A stretch of 63,721 bases of DNA, filler included, from Reticulomyxa filosa (Eukaryota > Protista > Foraminifera), in NCBI GenBank assembly GCA_000512085.1. It is 17 parts of 17 records of this genome, joined end to end, with 100 filler letters (N's around TTAATTAATTAA, not from the genome) between each part and the next. Parts side by side here need not be neighbours in the genome. Positions count along the whole stretch, not along the records: positions 29,053 to 36,100 come from ASPP01026715.1; 16 more parts are not named here. One strand, given 5' to 3'. How positions within the stretch are numbered: the first letter of the stretch is position 1; each line of letters starts with the position of its first letter. The translations under genes were made by a program, and so were the position numbers. Below the pieces are notes generated by a model. That model was not told where the DNA came from and made no database searches. It saw only the letters and a program-made list of their open reading frames with translations. Below are positions 27,025-38,384 of this stretch, in pieces.

Positions 27025-28815
27025 TCAAAACCTTTTTCTACTTTGCTTGTTGGTCCTGACTTGGTTCCACTTGTGTTTCTTTGATGTTTTCCTGTTTTTC
27101 CCATCACAATCATTCCAATTTTCGGTTGATATTAGCAACAAATATTCGACAGTTGTTTTTTTTAAGAGAATTATTTTCCTTTTGAAAAACAAAGCAATAC
27201 CTGCACCAGTTCGTTTGCACTTGTCCAACAAATATTGCAATACTGCTATCTTCATATCGCAGTCAAAGACTCCGTTGTAGTTTGAATCAAGTTTATCCAA
27301 CTGCATCAAATCTTGATATATTTTGAGTCTTTGTTCCAACCGTTCCTCTTTACTGGCCATCCATCCATATTGCATAGCTTCTTTTTCTAACACTGGATTA
27401 TTGATCAATTCAGGCGATTTATGTAAACACCAATTAATGATATCTTTTTTCTGGATTTGACCAATCTTGGCCACATCTAATCCACGAAGGGTGATATCAG
27501 CTTCCTGACCAGTTACTCCCATTTCTTTTAAAAATTCTTCTGTTTGTTGAATCGTTAAAAAGCCTTTATTTTCTTCGTCAAATTGGGCATAAATTTCGTC
27601 TAATTGCGTTTTGTGTTCTCCATATACCGTGCTAAATGCTCGTTGACGACCAAACGATTCCCTCACTGGTTCACGTTCTTTGGTATCAGTAACTGGAGTT
27701 GCTCCGCCTGTTTTTGTCGGCAAAGATTGGTTTACTGGGAATTGATCTGCGCTTTCCTCAGCTTCTTCTTTTGCATCTTCAGCATCTTCTTGTGTTGTGT
27801 CTGTTGGCTTTTCCGTTTGGATTTCTTCGTTGCCAGTTGTTGCTTCTACTTCCTTCGCGTCATTTTTGTCCTGAGATGTGTCTGTTCATTTGGTATTATT
27901 TATATGAATTCGATTTCAATCAAGTGAAACAAAAGCAATGTAAATGAAATGTTTAATCAATTAATAAATCATTATTATTATTTGGCAATCAATAAAATAA
28001 CTGTTAAAAGTATTTTTGGCTTTGGCGTACTGTTCGAGTAACTCAGGACTTAGTTTCTTCAAAAATGGAGCAGCTTTGGTCGGTTTCATCGTATCGAAGA
28101 CCATTAAAGTGTGAAAGGCGCGCAATTTGACATCGGAATCGGAAAGGCTGATTCCCTCGGAGATGGCATCTTTAATTTTCTCCCAAAACTCCTTATCGTC
28201 ATTGACATCAACATTTCGCTCAATGAAAACGCTGAGCGAATCAAAGCACGTGATTTGAACTGCATTGAAGCCTTTCAACAAAGCACCTTGAATGACCGTT
28301 TTGAAAATTGAGCGATCGGGGCTGTCCGGAACAAAACGAATCAACATGGTAACGCATTGGTGAGCACAATGTAATATCAATGGAGAAGTTGCATCCAACA
28401 GTTCCCAAAGAACTCGCAACAACTTTCCAACTTGTCCCTTCATGTTTTCAGTAGCAGCTTTACTCAATCGGGCCAACGTGTAACACGCAGCAAAGATAAT
28501 TCGTTCGTCTTGACTGCGCAACGCATCCATGAACCCTTTGGTCACTTTTTTGATCATATTTTGTTGGTCCGCACTCTTCAGAGTAGTTTTTGTGATTTCG
28601 TCCAACACCACACGCATCGCACGCGTTTTCTCTCGCCATCCAACTCCGGTGTCTGCCAATGTCATGTTAATGTCGTCAATGCCCATGCTATTGTCATTAT
28701 CAAAGCACTCCATGTGTTGGAATTTGCTGGTTTTCAGTTCGTTCCACAACAAATTGTACGTGGGTTCGCATATATGAAGTCCAGTCACAAAGCCCTCCAA
28801 GTCAATCACTAGTTT
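27025..28815 (-). CDS. TOG/CLASP-like HEAT domain protein with EF-hands (5'-truncated; intron 27882..28001)
   Basis: W(REKTRAM)...DALRSQDERIIFAAC...ISEGISLSDSDVKLRAF is a CLASP_N/TOG HEAT pattern; spliced in frame via an acidic linker to DEIYAQFDEENKGFLTIQQTEEFL and LDVAKIGQIQKKD (EF-hand pair) and DSNYNGVFD. Confidence 0.75.
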
Positions 28816-30873
28816 ATTTTGTTGTATGTTGTTGTTAGATTTTTGAAACGTTGGGAAGACAAAAAAACAAACGACTCACATAAATAGATATATGCTAAAT
28901 AAAGAAATGGCAATACATAGAAGCATATATGTACACACACACACACACACACNNNNNNNNNNNNNNNNNNNNNNNNNNNNNNNNNNNNNNNNNNNNTTAA
29001 TTAATTAANNNNNNNNNNNNNNNNNNNNNNNNNNNNNNNNNNNNNNNNNNNNTATATATCATAATACATTAGTATATGATATATCAGTTATTATCTTTAT
29101 AATTTTTGTGTGAAAATTAAAATTTTATTCGAAAAAATGAAAATGAATATTTTTATCAAGTCGTTGAACAAACTTGTATTAACCTTTTTGTTTGAACAAC
29201 AAACTTTGCACAAATCAAAATTAACAAGACTAGTTTTGTGCATGTTAAAAGAGTAAGCCAAAGATTACTTGTTTGTTCTCATACTCATTCTCTTATCCAA
29301 AACGAAAGCACACCAAAGTAAAGTACACTGGAGCGAAGCAAAAACATACATTTGGTGTGCAGTTTCTTTTGAATTTGTGATTCAACAGAAATCAAACAAG
29401 AAAGCATCTTCAGAGATCCGAATACCTTGGTGGCAACACCTAAAAAAACTTGAAAGGATATCCGAGTGTTGTTTTGGACTAATGACAAAAGAATTTGTTG
29501 AGATGATAACAAAAAAAATTGGAAATGACGAAAGAACTAAAGCAAATCAAATTTGTCATTTACGTTTTTTATGACGAAATAATTGTCAATACCACAATAC
29601 TTTTTGACATTTTTATCATGATTGTGTTTACTCTGTTGCAATTCTCGAAAAACTTTGATCACAACATCTTGATTTATATCTACGATTGTGCAATTTTCAA
29701 AAATGTTCATAGCTACTGGTAAAGTTACTGCACACGAAACTCAATTGTTTTTTTAAAGATCTATAAACTGTGAGCAAGGGATATTGGAAATTGCTTATCT
29801 ATGTGCCTTTTTGTCTATTTTTCTAATCCACTTGAATTACTTGAAAATATCAGGCAAAAAAAGGCTAACATTAGATTGTTAAGTTTAAAAACTAAAAAAT
29901 GCATTTGAATGCACAAAAAGCCGGGGTTTGAGAGTTTGTATTGAACATTTGGTAAGCATATTGGGCGCTATGTATTATTTGGCTGTTATTTATAACAAGA
30001 GGACACCTGGAAACCACCAAAAAAAATTTGCAAAAGATGTCAATTGACAAAGCAGTACACTCGATCGACAACACAACTGGTGGCGTCTTCCTTGCTTAAA
30101 AATGCTTTCAACTGCAAACTTAAAAAACAGTTTTCTTCCGCAAAAATATAACAACTGTTTTCTACGTAAAACATTAGTAAAAAATCTTTTTCGAAGAAAA
30201 AAAGTTATAGAAAACAGTTTTTTGATTCTGTTTTTAATTATGTATGCACCCGAAAATAGCGAGGTAATCTTTTTGTAATATGAAAAAGATTTGATGTCGA
30301 AGATGTAGTTTTAAATTTTTATTAAAACTAATTTTAGAAAAAGGCCAAAATTTAATTTTTTTATGAGCTGGATCCTAAATTAAAAAATGTATATAAAAAT
30401 TTATTAGCATTTTCGGACGCGTGCATCAATTAAAACAAGAGCAAGGATTGTTTGAGAACTTTTTAAAATGTTTAGCAAAATTATTATGAATAACCAAAAC
30501 CCAACCATGGAAATGGTCCAGAGATTTTTTTCTCGTTTAGTTCAACTTTTACCAAACCAAAAAAGCTATTGCTGCAAAAAAATCTACGACAAACAAGACT
30601 GTTTTTTAATAGCATTTTTAACGCAACAAGTCCGTGTTCGGGCTTTCAAAAAGCCTCAGCAAGTCCAAAAAGGCACCTAAAATAAAAACTCCCCTCGTCC
30701 GTTCGTAAAAAAAGGGCACAAACAAAAACGACGGAAAAAGCCGCTAAATACGTATACGATCGAATGTAAATCAATTTTTTGTTTTTCTGTTAAAAAATTA
30801 GGACATTAAAGTATTATATATGTCAAGGCACAAACGAGTGAAACTCAGGCCTTGCCTTCATCATGCTTGAAAA

Positions 30874-33800
30874 ATGAACAAATCTCAAGATTATGCACAA
30901 AAAAAAAGGGCAAATGTTTTGTTATTAAATAAAATTCTATTAAATCTGTGCAAAAATAATAAAATTTGCACTTCTTGTGAACCCATAAAAAGTGTACTCC
31001 AGTTTGAAAGCGTTTTTTTTAAAGAATCATCTATGGAACAAATTCAAGATATCTTCAGTATAATTGAAAAAGAGCTTATTTCGAAAGTATGGGACCTGTG
31101 CGAAGGAGATGTGGACGAGGTAACGACGCTCCTGAATTTCATCATAGAGAATCCGTTAAAACTAACACTAATACAAACACATTTGACAACAAGCTTATCA
31201 CAGTTCCTTTTTCTAAAACTAATTTCCAACTATACAAATTTATTATAGCAAAAGTTACCAGCAAGAACTGTACTTAAGGCAATTATTAAAAGAATTTGGT
31301 AATAAAATGGACAAAACAATTATTTTGGAGGAATGGAAGCAATGTAATCGAATTTATTGGGATACGCATATTAAACTAACAGAATTTTCTTCTATTTATG
31401 ACATCAATGCGTTAAATACTTTGTGAACAATTTTTAAAAAGTTAAACTAGAGAAAAAAAATATGTTATTGTGTATCTCATAGAATTGAAGAAAAGAGAGA
31501 ATTGAAAATAGTAAGAGAAATGTGTTTGCATATACTGTGGAATATCTTATCGTACCCCAAAGTTATTAAATATCGGCAAATTAATACTATTTCATTACTT
31601 CAAAATCTAAAACGTAAATGTGATTTATTACGTGCAAATGTAGCTCAAGTATTTATGGAAATGGAAAATTTTTTTAAAAAATATGGATTCCAAAAAGGAA
31701 ATGATGAGAATTGGTATTATCTGGATCACATTCAATTGTTATTGTTGTGGGAATGTTATCAAATATGGATTTATCTACAACCAATGTATTTTCATGTCTG
31801 AGCTGTTTTATTTATAAATGACAAAATCTACAAATGATTTGAAAATAAAGTGTGTATTCTTAATAATTATATATTCAACATAGCTACAAAACAAGAGTGA
31901 ATATTCCAACGACGGTATGTATGCTATCGAATGGAAAGTGGAAAGAATTTGAGATTGTATTTGATTATGAATATCGAAGAATTGTATTATTGAATAAAAA
32001 TAATTTGAAAGTAAAAACATTACAAGTTGGAAATCCAAAGAAATCATCATTGGAATTCAATGTTCATATCCAATGGTACAACGATTCTAAAATTGAAATA
32101 GATTGTATCAAATACTGTTGCCTCATTCTTAATCATTCTTGGCATTTTCGTACAAATGATTCTAGAAAAAGAGATTACTTATCAAATTATTGCTCAGTTA
32201 ATGATTTCACATTTCATACCCACAAAATTTGTCAATTACGTGAAATATGAAATACATTTCTATTTGTAGATTTGTTTGACATTCATTTATCAATAGGAGT
32301 TCAATTCATTCCAAGTTTTTTGTGAGAATGGTAGAAGCATACTTAGAAATTCGTATAACCCTTATTCAATTACTTTGAAACAAGGACTGCAACATCTCAA
32401 AGATCAATTTCAAGTGAGGCAAGAGTCTAATGGCTGTGGAGATGAATCGATAACATTTGAATGTAAATTTCATATGTGTTGTCCACAAATTTCATCGGAT
32501 ATGAATGAAGATATGCTATTGAATGATATTTATAAAGATTTTCATTATTTAAATAGACAGGTTTATTGGAAAATAAGTCATTATTTCATAGTGCCTTACA
32601 GAAATACAATTAATATTAGCACAATAAGAACTAACATACCAGAAGATAGAGATAGCACTATTTCATCAAATCGAAAACCTAAATTCAATCCGTTACTGTA
32701 TGAGTGTAATTTTATCAAACTTAGAATTATTCAAGATACTGTGTATTCGACTGCTTTATTAAATAATAACGCATTGAAAGAACTCTTGCACGAGGTAATA
32801 AAGAACGGTTATTTAATTGATTTGATCCCGAAGAAATTACTATCAAAGGGTGAAAAAAAAATCAAAAAACAAATTAATTATAATGAAAATAATGGAAATG
32901 AATTAATATTAAATAATAAAATATTAACAATATTAAATGAATTGAAGATATTATATTATAATGAAATTCATAAACAAATGGGATATCCACTTCAGTTACA
33001 TCAAATTTGTGCAATTTTACTATATTGTGGAAAATCATGTAATGCTGAATTTAGTTATGATCAAACAAAATTTCAATATTCCAAATGGAAGTATTTGGAT
33101 ACGTGGTCGCAAGATACTATTGTAATTTTGCATGGTCATGAAAGGAGAGAAGAAGAAAGTATAGAATTATATTGCGGATTGAAAAAAGTAAGATTAGAGA
33201 ATGAAAAAGAAATAAAACAAGGATTTTTCATAAGTCATGTAAGTACTTCTGATGATATTCAAGTTGCCAGAATGTTTAGAAGTGCTCAAGGATGTATTTT
33301 ACACTTTCATCCTTCAATGAGAAGAGCACAACGAATATATAGTTGTGATGTATCATGGATATCTCCATTTAAACATGAAAGGGAAATATTGTTTTCTAGA
33401 TCTAGTACATACATCTTTGATGAGGAAAGAGCAGTGGCATGGCGTGCAAAAATAGAAAGTGAAGATGAAAATACACAAATGATATTATTGACATGGGCAA
33501 AATATGATACATTTGTCCAACAAACTATGTATATTAGTAAAATGCAGAATTATTTGATTGACCTAAATCTCATCTATCAGGTTTTATTGGGTTTCAGAGG
33601 AAACATTGATGTCGCAATCATAAGTTTAAATTTATTTGAAGAATGGAAAAAGCAGCCAAATAATGTAAAAAAATATGAAGAAAAAAAGAAAGAATTTATC
33701 GAAAGACGTTGTTGTAATCATCATATCAATTTATTTATGATTTTTTTAAAAGAACATCTTCCCCATTTTAAAATTAACCATAATAAAGCGTGGAGTTATA

Positions 33801-33913
33801 AGTGCACTCCTATTGAATGGGCAACAATAGTCACTGCCAAATATGGCTTGCCATTTGTTGAAAAGACAGGAGAGATAATAAATAACAACAAAAAATATGC
33901 CTTTGTTAAATGA
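30874..33913 (+). CDS. Multi-exon protein: CUE/UBA-like x2, PUB, PH-like, ADP-ribosyltransferase (R-S-E clade), UBA-like
   Basis: EQIQDIFSIIEKELISKVWDLCEGDVDEVTTLL (CUE-like); LHILWNILSYPKVIKYRQIN...FFKKYGF (PUB); AILLYCG helix, LYCG (33167-78), HVSTS (33236-50), A.MF, GCILHF and DVSWISPFKHEREILF (ExE at 33377-85), the mono-ART catalytic signature. Start codon and exon borders approximate. Confidence 0.75.
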
Positions 33914-34724
33914 AAAACGAACAAATAAAATGTACAAAAACCAAAAAAAGTATCTAATACAGCTTAAATTGTAATTTTTTTCATCGAAACAAATACTAAA
34001 AAACTAGTGATTCGTTCGACATAAATTTTTAGATATTATTTGTTTTGCTAGAGATCTGAAACTTTGAAAGCTGACAGTATGTATGCTTTGACAATTCAAT
34101 CATGATAAAATATTTGCATACACGGAATAAGATAGGATTAATCTTCATTAACTCCTTCTTGATCAGGTGCATAAAATTTGAGTTAAAAAATGCTACGTTT
34201 TCATTAATTAATGAAATATGTGCATGACAAATTGAACCTCCGATTTCACTGGATAAACTTTAGTCATAAAAAACATTGCACTTTTTCTGGTCAATTGGAA
34301 GTTGTAAATATTTTTTTAAATAAATAATTGTGGGACGTCTGCTGATAGTATTGGTGCACTAACTGTAATACGAGAGATGTTTACTTAGAAGAGAATAGGA
34401 GTATTCGTAAAACGAAAGCGGTTTAAATAATAAATCAAAATAACAAAAGGAAAGTAAAGAAAAGTAAGAAAGTAAGAAGTAGGTTTGTTGAGAAAGTTTA
34501 ACCTACTGGGGATTCCTCTGTTCCTTTAATGTTCAGATACTTATAATAGGGACTTGCCCTACATAATTGATAAGTTTTTGTCTCTACATTCAAATTCAAT
34601 GTGTTCGTTTATACTTGGAAAAAAGTTGTGTTGAGTTTTTTTTATTAAAAAAAATCCTCTTTTCAAATACATTTCATCCCCATTGACAAGACCAAGGAAT
34701 TAATCTTTTCTTGATCCTTTGACC

Positions 34725-36100
34725 ATGACATTTCTATTCAAAAGATGGTCAAGTCAGAACAATTGTAAAGTAATTTTTTTTTTCAGCTTTTTTTTAACAA
34801 TAAAAAAAAAATATCAAATAATAAAAAAAGTCAACACTGACGGTTCGCAAAGTATCGATGAAAGGAAATTTACTGTAAATTCTGAGCAATTACTCAATAT
34901 GATTTTTGAAGGTACACGCATATTCGCGTATTTGTGTTTCCATTTCTTTTTTTTTTTTTTTACTAAAAAACTAAACGAAACGTGAAAACAGATTTGCAAG
35001 AAGCAATTATGCCAATGCAACTGGATATAAATGAAATTAAAGTTAACAATGATGGACTACTACTACTTGTAGAAACACAGGATAATATATACATTAAAAT
35101 TGCATCCTTCTGTTGCTCTTTTTTTCTATTAAAAAAAAATGAGCAATTTGTGTAATAATATCAATTGACTAGACTGAAGAAGTAATGCATATAAGTGCAA
35201 ATACACTGCCTCTTATTGGTAAATTACCTGTCAAACTTGCAGGAGGCATGCAAAATGAGTCAAAGACAGTAAATTATGAAGGAAAAGTGAAGGCATTGAT
35301 AAAATTGTACGGTGACGTGGCAAAAGAAGATGTGTTGAAGAAAAAGCTCGAACAAAGCAATGGAAATGTATTAAATGTAGTCGATCAGATGACAGTCACA
35401 TTAAATCAAAATGTTATGTTCACTTTTACATAACAACAAAAAATACAATATATATACAAGATATCACTTTTACAATATGTAGACTGCTGTTCAACATTCC
35501 ATTGAAGAAATCAAAACTGAACAAGTTAAGACCATTGACATTCTTTTTTTGACATATGTATAATAACACGCATTTTACTAACGATATGGAAAAAAGAAAA
35601 CAAATGATGATGCTGGAGTAAATTCTGGACTGGTACAAGAGCCAGATAAATTGAAAAAAGAAGAGGAAAAGGCAGAAATTGGAGAAATCAAACCGGGAAT
35701 TAATTTACAAGGCTATTGCACAAATATAGATTGTTTGGCTTCGAAAGCAAAGTTATTAGTATGGATAAATATTGGATTTTGTGATATTTCATTCAACTCA
35801 GAAAAGACATTATATAATTGTCCAGACTGTGGACAATTAACTGTTACATCCATTATAAAGGCAGTGATCTTTAATTCAGAGCATGTCATCAGCTCAAATG
35901 ATAACCCAATTCCTGTGAAAGATAATCATTACCAAAGCCTTTATGCAATCAAATTAGGGTCATCTTATGAAATAAAAGCCAAAAGAATAAGACAACATGC
36001 AACAAGCTTGGAAGATTTAATTAATCGAAGTGAAAATGCAATGACGAGTAATGAGATAATCAATTTGGTGTCTGAATTACAAAAATATCTTATAACAGTG
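34725..36100 (+). CDS. Multi-exon protein (3'-truncated): ubiquitin-like domain ending LAGG, UBA/CUE-like, Cys4 zinc-binding domain
   Basis: [20 protein letters not shown]...[15 protein letters not shown] (35236-47) resembles a beta-grasp fold with di-Gly; [36 protein letters not shown] is UBA/CUE-like; [14 protein letters not shown]...INIGF...CPDC is a C-x4-C...C-x2-C module. Confidence 0.6.
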
Positions 36101-38384
36101 NNNNNNNNNNNNNNNNNNNNNNNNNNNNNNNNNNNNNNNNNNNNTTAATTAATTAANNNNNNNNNNNNNNNNNNNNNNNNNNNNNNNNNNNNNNNNNNNN
36201 AGTTTGAGAGTGTCGACTTTGTTCAGTTTCCCTTTTAGTTTGCTCGGCCATGTCGTTAATGTTTAGGAAGTTTTTTTAAGTTTAATTTTTTTTAAAAAAG
36301 GGGCTGTGACCTAACCCTTTTTGAAAAACAAAATATTTTACATTGGCATTTTTTATTTGGTTAAACATAATTTGGACAATGAAAATTAAAATGCATGAAA
36401 GGTTAAATTATTTGTATCGAGAACTTTAATGAAAAAATAATATAATTGTTACGTGGCAGTCTGAAATGAAAGTATCAAAAACATGGATGTTGTACCTTTC
36501 TTTTTGAAATTAGTGATTAAGAATCTTGAAATGTTTATAGTCTTTGCCACGTTAAGACTTACAAACAAGTTCTTTTTTAGTGAAATTTAAAAAAAAAGAG
36601 AGTTCTATGAATTTTATCCTGCTTATAAATGATTGGAGTTTTTAATGATGTTTTTCACTAGTTTTTTTTGTCCTAAAACTTTTTTGTAAAGTTATGCAAC
36701 TTGTAATCTCTGTCCAATCAACATTTTACAAAAAAAATAAATGATTACGTATGTGACTCGTACCTCCATAGATCGTTTATAGGTTTTTTTATGAACCAAA
36801 CAAATCGGATTAAATTATGTTTCTTTCAACAAAGTTGTACTCCTACATTCCAATGCATTCAAGAAACATTGCATATTTGTCATTCTTTGGAGGAATATGC
36901 AAAAACAATTTGAAAACGTTAGAATAGTATTTTTAAAAAATTAAAACACATTCATTTTTTTTTCTGCATTTGGGAAAATATCAACTTTTTGACATATCAA
37001 CAAAATTACTTGTGATAATAGATCCTTAGAACAATGATTTTAAATTATAAAAATGTATACAGTTGAAGTCAGTTCAAAACTGATGTTACAAGCAAAATCT
37101 CTTTTTTAAACAAAGGAGCCAAAATTAAATTTAAAAGAATTGAGACAAATACATTCTCCTTGTAATATACATATATTCGCATGTTATTTGAAACCTAAAA
37201 TTATCTAAAAAGTTGACGATGAAGGAGCAAAAAAAAGTTAGCCAATTTTGACTCAAATCCAAATATTATAATTTAATCAAAAAGAACATTTGCAGTTGAG
37301 CACTAATACGGACGGCACGTTGGGAGTAAAGGCCCTGTTTGGGAGGTATGCTTGGTGTGCGTTTGGTATGTTTTGTGAGGGAGTGGAGCTATGCATACGT
37401 AAATGAAAGAAATAGTGTGATGATATTGGGTGATCGATTTGAAGTCGAATTGGAAGAAAAAATAAGTAAAATCAGTGGACATAATAATGAGTTATTAGTG
37501 GTGAAAGTGTAGTGCGAGAAAGATAAGTGAGTGGAGGTCGTTATTTCAATAAGGGCAATGGCGTGGTACTTGCGAAGTCGAATGAAATAATGGTGTGCCT
37601 GGTGAAAGACCTGATCGATAAATATCACAAAGAGCTGGATGGAACAGGCAAGGACAATCGCATCGGAATGGGAACACACAAACTCAAAGTATGCAAGCTA
37701 CTACAACAATATGAACAGCAAGCAAACGGGCATGAAAATAACAGAATTGAAATNNNNNNNNNNNNNNNNNNNNNNNNNNNNNNNNNNNNNNNNNNNNTTA
37801 ATTAATTAANNNNNNNNNNNNNNNNNNNNNNNNNNNNNNNNNNNNNNNNNNNNCTTAAACTTGGTGTTCAACACATCATTGATTTTTTTTATGAATGAAA
37901 ATTTGTTTAATTTTGTCACTTTGTTTTCAGGTTAGAAATTATTGAAACACAATTACTGAAATGCTAAAGATTATTTGAATTGAAAGAGTAAGACAATAAA
38001 AAAAGTTGAACTGAATGTTTTTTTCCCTTTTCCCGAAACCGTTCGTTTGGTTTTTTGGTCCGGCGTCAGTGGTGGAGAGCTTAATCCTGATATCTAGTGC
38101 CGCCTTCGTTTGAAAAAGTTAAATAGGCACATTTTCTTTTCTTTTTTGAAGATTGAAAGTTTGGAGTCTAAAACATTACTACAAATAACAATAGGCGGCG
38201 ACGAGTTATTTATTGGAGATCGCAGTTGTGGATTCGTAATCGTGTCGATCGTGTGTCGTGTCGTGTCGTGTCGTATCATATCATGTCGTTGTGATTGTGG
38301 ATGGATAATGGGATTATAAAGTTGGATTATTTTGCTGCAGATTGTGGTCTATGATGGTGGTATTGATAGTCGTTTTTGGTGGTG

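Follow-up and report, generated by a model that had tools for sequence, protein, structure and literature searches.

Can an ADP-ribosyltransferase (ART) dispense with the arginine by which its class is defined? The question is raised by a predicted gene at positions 31033..33913 (+ strand) in a stretch of DNA from the foraminiferan Reticulomyxa filosa (assembly GCA_000512085.1; the entire stretch of 63,721 nucleotides is hereafter the window). The original prediction, made from the letters alone, saw here a toxin-type R-S-E mono-ART fused to ubiquitin- and p97-binding modules. The beta1 arginine is treated as the defining NAD-binding residue of this class, and the Arg-less ARTC4 and XopAI are viewed either as inactive or as unproven (published work is cited here from excerpts, and statements that rest on it hold for those excerpts). 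In distant foraminifera, no fewer than 120 sequences drop the beta1 Arg and hold the STS and ExE motifs, which makes the family a direct test of whether this residue is dispensable, with Arg-bearing and ExE-less paralogues as natural comparators. Should the family be active, a protist would have an ADP-ribosylation system with ties to ubiquitin; should it be inactive, it would be an extensive set of ART pseudo-enzymes. We favor, with a probability of about 0.42, the reading that the gene encodes an atypical intracellular, NAD+-using ART, of low activity or tightly regulated, that would be steered by ubiquitin- and membrane-directed modules.

The ART fold, originally placed at 32950-33420, is borne out by modeling. 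The model of the gene's own residues 432-838 is of high confidence (predicted local distance difference test score, pLDDT, 92; predicted template modeling score, pTM, 0.91), and its top Foldseek matches are ExoS, ExoT and ART2.2, with the best E value of 2.4e-5 for ExoS. A wide structure search returned ART2.2 (Z 15.1, root-mean-square deviation 3.1 over 197 residues), HopU1 (Z 14.7), chain 6drh (Z 13.8), which is Tre1 according to PMC6829252, XopAI (Z 13.6) and ExoS (Z 12.7), followed at Z 6.0 by the first match that is not of the ART group. The predicted structure is clearly that of an ART of the cholera-toxin-like group (ART2.2/HopU1/ExoS). In searches by sequence, Pfam ART gave no match for the gene at E <=1, and its cut-off was passed by 3 of the 78 first-round homologues, i.e., the proteins retrieved with the last exon (73 of them named R. 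filosa, at 36-66% identity). Among the PDB sequences, nothing significant was retrieved with two wide alignments or with either the PUB exon or the last one, and a tighter ART alignment reached ExoT at E 0.021; a match to EAD9 (E 0.05) was dismissed as due to chance. With the R-S-E (ARTC) mono-ARTs, such as rat ART2.2, Pseudomonas HopU1, Tre1 and ExoS/ExoT, the gene product shares the predicted fold, N-terminal helical lobe included, as well as the STS motif, the aromatic residue of the ADP-ribosylating turn-turn (ARTT) loop and the ExE ([QE]xE) motif. Unlike them, it has neither the beta1 aromatic-Arg motif nor the alpha3 Asn or Arg, and its ART domain is embedded in a multi-domain protein that is predicted to be intracellular, as originally proposed: hydropathy along the whole predicted protein reveals neither a signal peptide nor a membrane helix. 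The lack of any hydrophobic stretch and of a Pfam ART match also sets it apart from the vertebrate-type ecto-ARTs (PF01129).

The ART region had 330 matches among cluster representatives, the best 150 of which were considered, and the active site was analyzed in an alignment of 138 sequences. In 127 of these, 80% or more of the ART core is covered; they comprise 47 Reticulomyxa copies (the gene included, mutually less than 90% identical), 77 distant homologues (less than 45% identical to the gene) and 3 intermediate sequences, which were excluded from the two-group counts. The motif letters stand where they had been read, with LYCG at 33167, STS at 33242-33250 (S616-T617-S618) and E-R-E at 33377-33385, that is, E661 at 33377 and E663 at 33383, preceded by F658 as the ARTT aromatic residue; it is their interpretation as an R-S-E signature that fails. 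The x of LYxG is Cys593 (33173), which the family profile aligns to the signature beta1 Arg of ExoT; the alignment is weak (E 0.021), and the register of this column is supported by the two homologues, among the 127 aligned, that have Arg there. By the same weak mapping, the alpha3 Asn corresponds to Ser553 in the gene (Cys in 64 of the 77 distant homologues) and the alpha3 Arg to Thr557 (Ile in 34 of the 47 Reticulomyxa copies; Arg is kept in 70 of the 77 distant homologues). Because the first Arg and the alpha3 Asn/Arg are absent, the gene product is not an R-S-E enzyme in the strict sense and, as judged from sequence, the family is an Arg-less variant of the toxin-like ART class, outside the strict R-S-E family.

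The replacement of the signature residue is nearly uniform: Ser, Thr or Cys occupies the beta1 column in 45 of 47 Reticulomyxa copies and in 72 of 77 distant homologues (117 of 124 together). Arg occurs naturally at this position in P0081 (RFI_27877), P0106 and P0186, of which the first, a paralogue from Reticulomyxa, branches close to the base of the expanded clade. The remaining catalytic set, S+E+E, is intact in 74 of the 77 distant homologues, among which the median column conservation is 0.56, and is complete in 35 of 47 Reticulomyxa copies; in the gene's own clade of 31 members, STS and E661 are found in all 31 and E663 in 30. In addition, 40-47 of the 47 Reticulomyxa copies have a basic residue at the positions of K596, R599, R628 and R642/R643, which are less fixed in the distant homologues. 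The idea that the beta1 Ser/Thr/Cys might serve as a nucleophile was not adopted, since XopAI also has Thr at this position.

What would bring such an enzyme to its targets? The N-terminal half was modeled on the paralogue P0072, which is 49% identical to the gene. Residues 99-198 of this model match the PUB domains of PNGase (Z 11.1, root-mean-square deviation 2.0 over 85 residues) and UBXD1 (Z 9.0), and exon 3 is predicted on this basis to encode a PUB fold; Pfam PUB matches the gene itself with E 1.8e-4, below the cut-off. The fold that had been proposed is thus upheld, and the p97 binding that had been attached to it is not. According to PMC6995525, the motif YxxN(x)9Y is essential for binding of the p97 tail, and K/RxxN binds the tail carboxylate. 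The corresponding pocket positions in the gene are I112, N115, Y125, N129 and S132, with three of the five key residues lost; N115, K124 and Y125 are kept, so that the likeness to PNGase and UBXD1 extends to N(x)9Y and the preceding Lys. Among 24 aligned copies of the domain, the first pocket Tyr is replaced by Ile in 19 (including Ile112 of the gene) and by Val in 4, with one gap, the Asn is retained in 22 and the second Tyr in 23, and K/RxxN, the positions of which were located by counting from the conserved Tyr, is found in none, neither the K/R nor the Asn being present. The PUB domain of SPATA2, with Val for the first Tyr, was not found to bind such tails, as described in the excerpt of PMC6995525. 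Because the first Tyr and K/RxxN are absent, the family domain is likened to the SPATA2 type, which does not bind the PUB-interacting motif (PIM), rather than to a p97 adaptor, and p97 recruitment becomes unlikely for the same reason; we consider p97 binding by this predicted domain very unlikely. Accordingly low is the standing of the originally proposed enzyme, a canonical R-S-E transferase that targets arginine and reaches p97/Cdc48 through PUB: clear matches back the predicted folds of both ART and PUB, and ExE, STS and part of the PUB pocket are in place, but Cys593 stands at the signature Arg, and we regard this possibility as highly improbable.

Of the other modules, exon 4 is predicted to have a PH fold, in agreement with the PH-like exon noted originally: residues ~199-305 of the P0072 model match PH domains with Z of 8.0-10.1, and PH domains account for most of the 50 best structural matches. 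For the CUE/UBA-like bundles, helices are predicted, and the likeness to CUE/UBA domains is weak. Bundles 1 and 2 are helical in the P0072 model, bundle 1 with three helices, and bundle 3 is so in the model of the gene's own residues; Pfam CUE was detected below its cut-off in 2 of the 78 homologues; HHalign relates bundle 1 to bundle 2 (probability 58%, E 1e-4) and bundle 3 to bundle 1 (probability 78%, E 1.9e-5), with a probability below 1% for bundle 2 against bundle 3. The structural matches of the third bundle, namely HBS1-like (Z 5.5), the N-terminal domain of EF-Ts (Z 4.5) and the UBA domain of TAP (Z 4.4), fall under the bar that the search tool sets for helical bundles. That the predicted CUE-like bundles bind ubiquitin, as suggested by the weak CUE-like similarity together with the ubiquitin-system fusions in relatives, seems to us to have not quite an even chance.

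The original list of domains was incomplete, having passed over a domain of ~105 residues (amino acids 301-405) between PH and ART. Its order of strands and helices in the model fits a beta-grasp, and one paralogue matches Pfam E1_UFD (E 0.003) in the scan of first-round homologues. HHalign comparisons with two ubiquitin domains and with the domain in the same place of the distant homologues gave no match, an Atlas search gave nothing, and the fold-search rows for P0072 were dominated by PUB and PH; the segment is possibly a ubiquitin-like (beta-grasp) domain. A complex prediction for the N-terminal half and the ART half of P0003, run without an alignment, scored 0.01, from which no verdict is drawn.

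From these parts, a tentative mechanism can be assembled. By means of its CUE/UBA-like bundles and its PH domain, the protein would attach to membranes or to proteins tagged with ubiquitin, and the PUB domain would provide a SPATA2-like surface for proteins other than p97. The NAD+ molecule would be held by substitute basic residues, K596, R599, R628 and R642/R643, that are fixed in the clade; Glu663 would cleave it, and Glu661 would direct the transfer to arginine, unless the last step is hydrolysis of NAD+ alone. Some turnover of NAD+ by the predicted ART domain appears slightly more probable than none.

A number of observations weigh against this scheme. The beta1 Arg, the alpha3 Asn and the alpha3 Arg are all missing in the gene, while PMC6628389 describes the first as invariant and NAD-binding in cholera toxin (CT)-like toxins and the second as absolutely conserved in toxins that are not pertussis toxin (PT)-like. 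Twelve of the 47 Reticulomyxa copies are devoid of part of S+E+E, the losses being concentrated in two clades, one with 9 members (support 0.59) and one with 4 (support 0.89), and in one singleton. The conservation of the glutamates in the 31-member clade is not diagnostic by itself, because 40% of the columns are equally conserved, and the substitute basic residues are candidates picked out by their position in the sequence. The CUE/UBA assignments stay below thresholds, both in Pfam and in Z, and bundle 1 of the gene has Phe-Ser where most paralogues have Phe-Pro. ARTC4, with G-S-E, is inactive according to PMC11088682; as it is tabulated as mono-active in PMC7955679, the Arg-less precedent is not unanimous. 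Finally, XopAI of Xanthomonas, with Thr at beta1 and an intact ExE, has a cleft unsuited to NAD+ (PMC6829252), and its activity is described as unshown in the excerpt of PMC8150971.

It is XopAI, for which the like has been proposed, that gives substance to the main rival explanation, to which we assign a considerable, if still minor, probability: the protein would be a pseudo-enzyme whose cleft is closed to NAD+ and which acts as an adaptor or decoy, with ExE binding an arginine-bearing peptide or an ADP-ribosylated protein instead. In its favor stand the loss in the gene of both NAD-phosphate arginines and of the alpha3 Asn and the degeneration of the PUB domain in the same protein, and XopAI, one of the top structural matches, likewise combines a small hydroxyl or thiol residue in place of the beta1 Arg and the loss of the second NAD-binding Arg with a retained ExE. 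The parallel is nevertheless imperfect: XopAI has lost STS, having AAS instead, and has acquired an acidic residue at the second Arg and an acidic cleft, whereas the foraminiferan family keeps STS throughout the gene's clade and has extra basic residues around the site that are fixed in the Reticulomyxa clade, and most distant homologues still have the alpha3 Arg. Moreover, XopAI is a secreted effector, whereas the foraminiferan family is eukaryotic and expanded.

The favored reading of an atypical but NAD+-using ART can be viewed in a broader context by considering the domains that are fused to it in relatives. A domain scan covered 89 of 122 new homologues and revealed, above the Pfam cut-offs, ubiquitin in 2, PH in 3 and an RZ finger in 1; SAM, WD40, TPR and Kelch repeats were also found fused, and some of the repeat fusions in Reticulomyxa may be artefacts of gene models. 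The RZ-type zinc finger (49.8 bits) belongs to P0148 from Bolivina argentea, where it accompanies the ART and a weak RING. RZ fingers are linked to antimicrobial E3 ligases. In distant homologues, 62 regions of tandem Cys/His fingers directly precede the ART domain (e.g., P0142, residues 213-312), 55 of which show the pattern C-x5-C...H-x3-[YF]-x-H and 32 a stricter one; such fingers are absent from the gene at 31033..33913. They resemble, with a longer spacer, the ADP-ribose-binding PBZ consensus of PMC4756826, and Pfam PBZ yielded one match, below the cut-off. An unnamed domain of ~100 residues stands before the fingers in distant homologues (P0142, residues 112-212, and 41 other regions), in up to three copies in one protein (P0167), with no link to ubiquitin shown. 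The fusions connect the clade to the biology of ADP-ribose and ubiquitin, which does not by itself establish catalytic activity. The boldest version of the hypothesis, namely a foraminifera-specific, active intracellular [C/S/T]-S-E ART class devoid of the signature arginine, with PBZ-like fingers that would read its own mark in rotaliids and with ubiquitin coupling through CUE, PUB, ubiquitin and RZ-finger fusions, expanding as a defence against engulfed microbes, seems unlikely in its entirety.

How large and how widespread is the family? At least 47 Reticulomyxa paralogues have the ART core, which answers the question of paralogue number that the original prediction had raised. Thirty matches were looked up, including 6 from R. 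filosa, 8 from Bolivina argentea and 3 from Nonionella stella, and all named relatives are foraminifera; the latter two species are rotaliids known from transcriptomes. In the tree, all Reticulomyxa copies except P0099 fall in one clade of 51 (support 0.94), and the gene, which deviates at 4 of 93 conserved positions, is typical of the family. Pattern scans of prokaryote genomes, viral contigs and JGI metagenomes brought up no relative that was confirmed, which, as short exact motifs were required, leaves absence unproven. The automatic names in UniRef designate two paralogues as ADP-ribosyltransferase and three as CUE proteins.

An expansion of this kind invites a further explanation, that the family is mostly a by-product of genome copy-number growth, through neutral drift or as a selfish toxin-derived element like AACRNL, and that the gene at 31033..33913 does nothing special in the cell. 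In its favor are the dozens of paralogues (36-66% identity), many of them partial, the fusion of some gene models with Kelch, WD40 or TPR repeats and the 12 copies with lost catalytic residues; the intact frame of 838 codons with four canonical introns, the few deviations from conserved positions, the conservation of the clade in Bolivina and Nonionella and the fact that no terminal repeats were seen in 28900-36200, where the repeats are short A+T-rich chance matches, speak against it, and we rate this explanation as quite unlikely. AACRNL of free-living animals (PMC12957317) is similar in that a toxin-like ART was amplified in a free-living eukaryote and has a tie to ubiquitin signaling; its ART is, however, of the diphtheria type, with Crinkler ancestry and a transposon context, none of which was found for the gene, whose matches are in the cholera-toxin-like group. 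Under the NAD+-using reading, a defence role would account for the family expansion; this is the weakest step of the mechanism and, being suggested by expansion and domain shuffling, must be considered rather doubtful. Eukaryotes have recruited toxin ARTs several times (PMC3417536). Rotifer and haptophyte clusters in the ESM Atlas, automatically named PF01129, also place ART domains in microbe-eating eukaryotes, some with TPR or WWE; given their low scores (0.78) and a comparison by name, these are leads only. The excerpt of PMC4245714 mentions Reticulomyxa only for PARPs, and that of bioRxiv 10.1101/2024.07.30.605764 does not mention Rhizaria. A description of the family was not found in the literature searched on foraminiferan or Reticulomyxa ARTs, protist ART expansions, rotifer ARTs and the Reticulomyxa Crinkler; the R. 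filosa genome paper, the 2015 review of ART natural history and supplements lay outside this search and may mention it.

All of the above presupposes that the exons form one gene. The model, which is based on GT-AG sites and on tblastn of the 78 homologues, reads open over 2517 nt once four GT-AG introns, of 94, 72, 98 and 100 nt, are removed (Table 1), and retention of any single intron would bring a stop within 5-31 codons. It is colinear with the long paralogues P0003 (residues 1-784, 54%), P0083 (residues 1-823, 35%) and P0036. We infer that the five exons are spliced together, and consider it very probable that a single transcript covers the gene, in line with the spliced protein originally envisaged. 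The public protein RFI_30523 (R. filosa) is 100% identical across the PUB exon, as is P0202; RFI_30523 represents the same locus and likewise has the ART exon and the N-terminal exons in one protein, with splice sites that differ from those of the five-exon model and break the PH region. It starts at 30874, as did the original prediction. The ATG at 31033 is the more likely start: the matching Met is the start in 9 of the 10 listed paralogues that have bundle 1, and the start at 30874 was set aside, as its 53-codon extension was unmatched among the collected proteins (best E 0.1). Chimeric assembly was ruled out because the entire gene sits within one contig of 7048 bases (29053-36100). The C-terminal helical region is conserved among the Reticulomyxa paralogues, with 64 profile matches among the collected proteins.

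Table 1. Features of the ART-family gene, with positions in the window and the content or basis of each assignment
Feature	Position	Strand	Content or basis
Whole gene	31033..33913	+	Open frame, GT-AG introns, colinearity with P0003, P0036 and P0083
Exon 1	31033..31154	+	Likely start ATG and predicted CUE-like helical bundle 1, aa 1-41
Exon 2	31249..31410	+	Predicted CUE-like helical bundle 2, aa 45-92
Exon 3	31483..31785	+	Predicted PUB-fold domain, p97-tail pocket degenerate
Exon 4	31884..32196	+	Predicted PH-fold domain
Exon 5	32297..33913	+	Possible beta-grasp domain, ART domain, third bundle, C-terminal region
Possible beta-grasp domain	32297..32611	+	Beta-beta-alpha-beta-beta order in model
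ART domain, aa 432-702	32690..33502	+	Model, fold searches, ExoT alignment
Third UBA/CUE-like bundle, aa 700-756	33494..33664	+	HHalign to bundle 1, weak structural matches
C-terminal helical region, no family assigned	33665..33913	+	Model; stop at 33911-33913

The surroundings of the gene are to be viewed with the make-up of the window in mind. Short contigs are chained here by 100-base spacers, made of runs of N, in 16 places (e.g., 28953-29052 and 36101-36200), and the two spacers that were inspected each carry a 12-base stop-codon linker; since the contigs are joined by spacers, genes across the joins are not true neighbours. On the same contig, the next gene (35173-36100, +), truncated by the contig end, comprises a short helical stretch, UBA/CUE-like by eye, and a Cys-rich open reading frame with weak zinc-ribbon matches. 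The preceding contig contains a HEAT-repeat open reading frame (27961-28875, -) with a CLASP_N match barely above the cut-off. Farther along the window, 53115-53510 (+) matches sequence that extends the C termini of five gene models of paralogues (P0030, P0032, P0048, P0054 and P0067), two of which have Kelch matches; this segment probably belongs to a second expanded family whose members often adjoin the ART-family genes.

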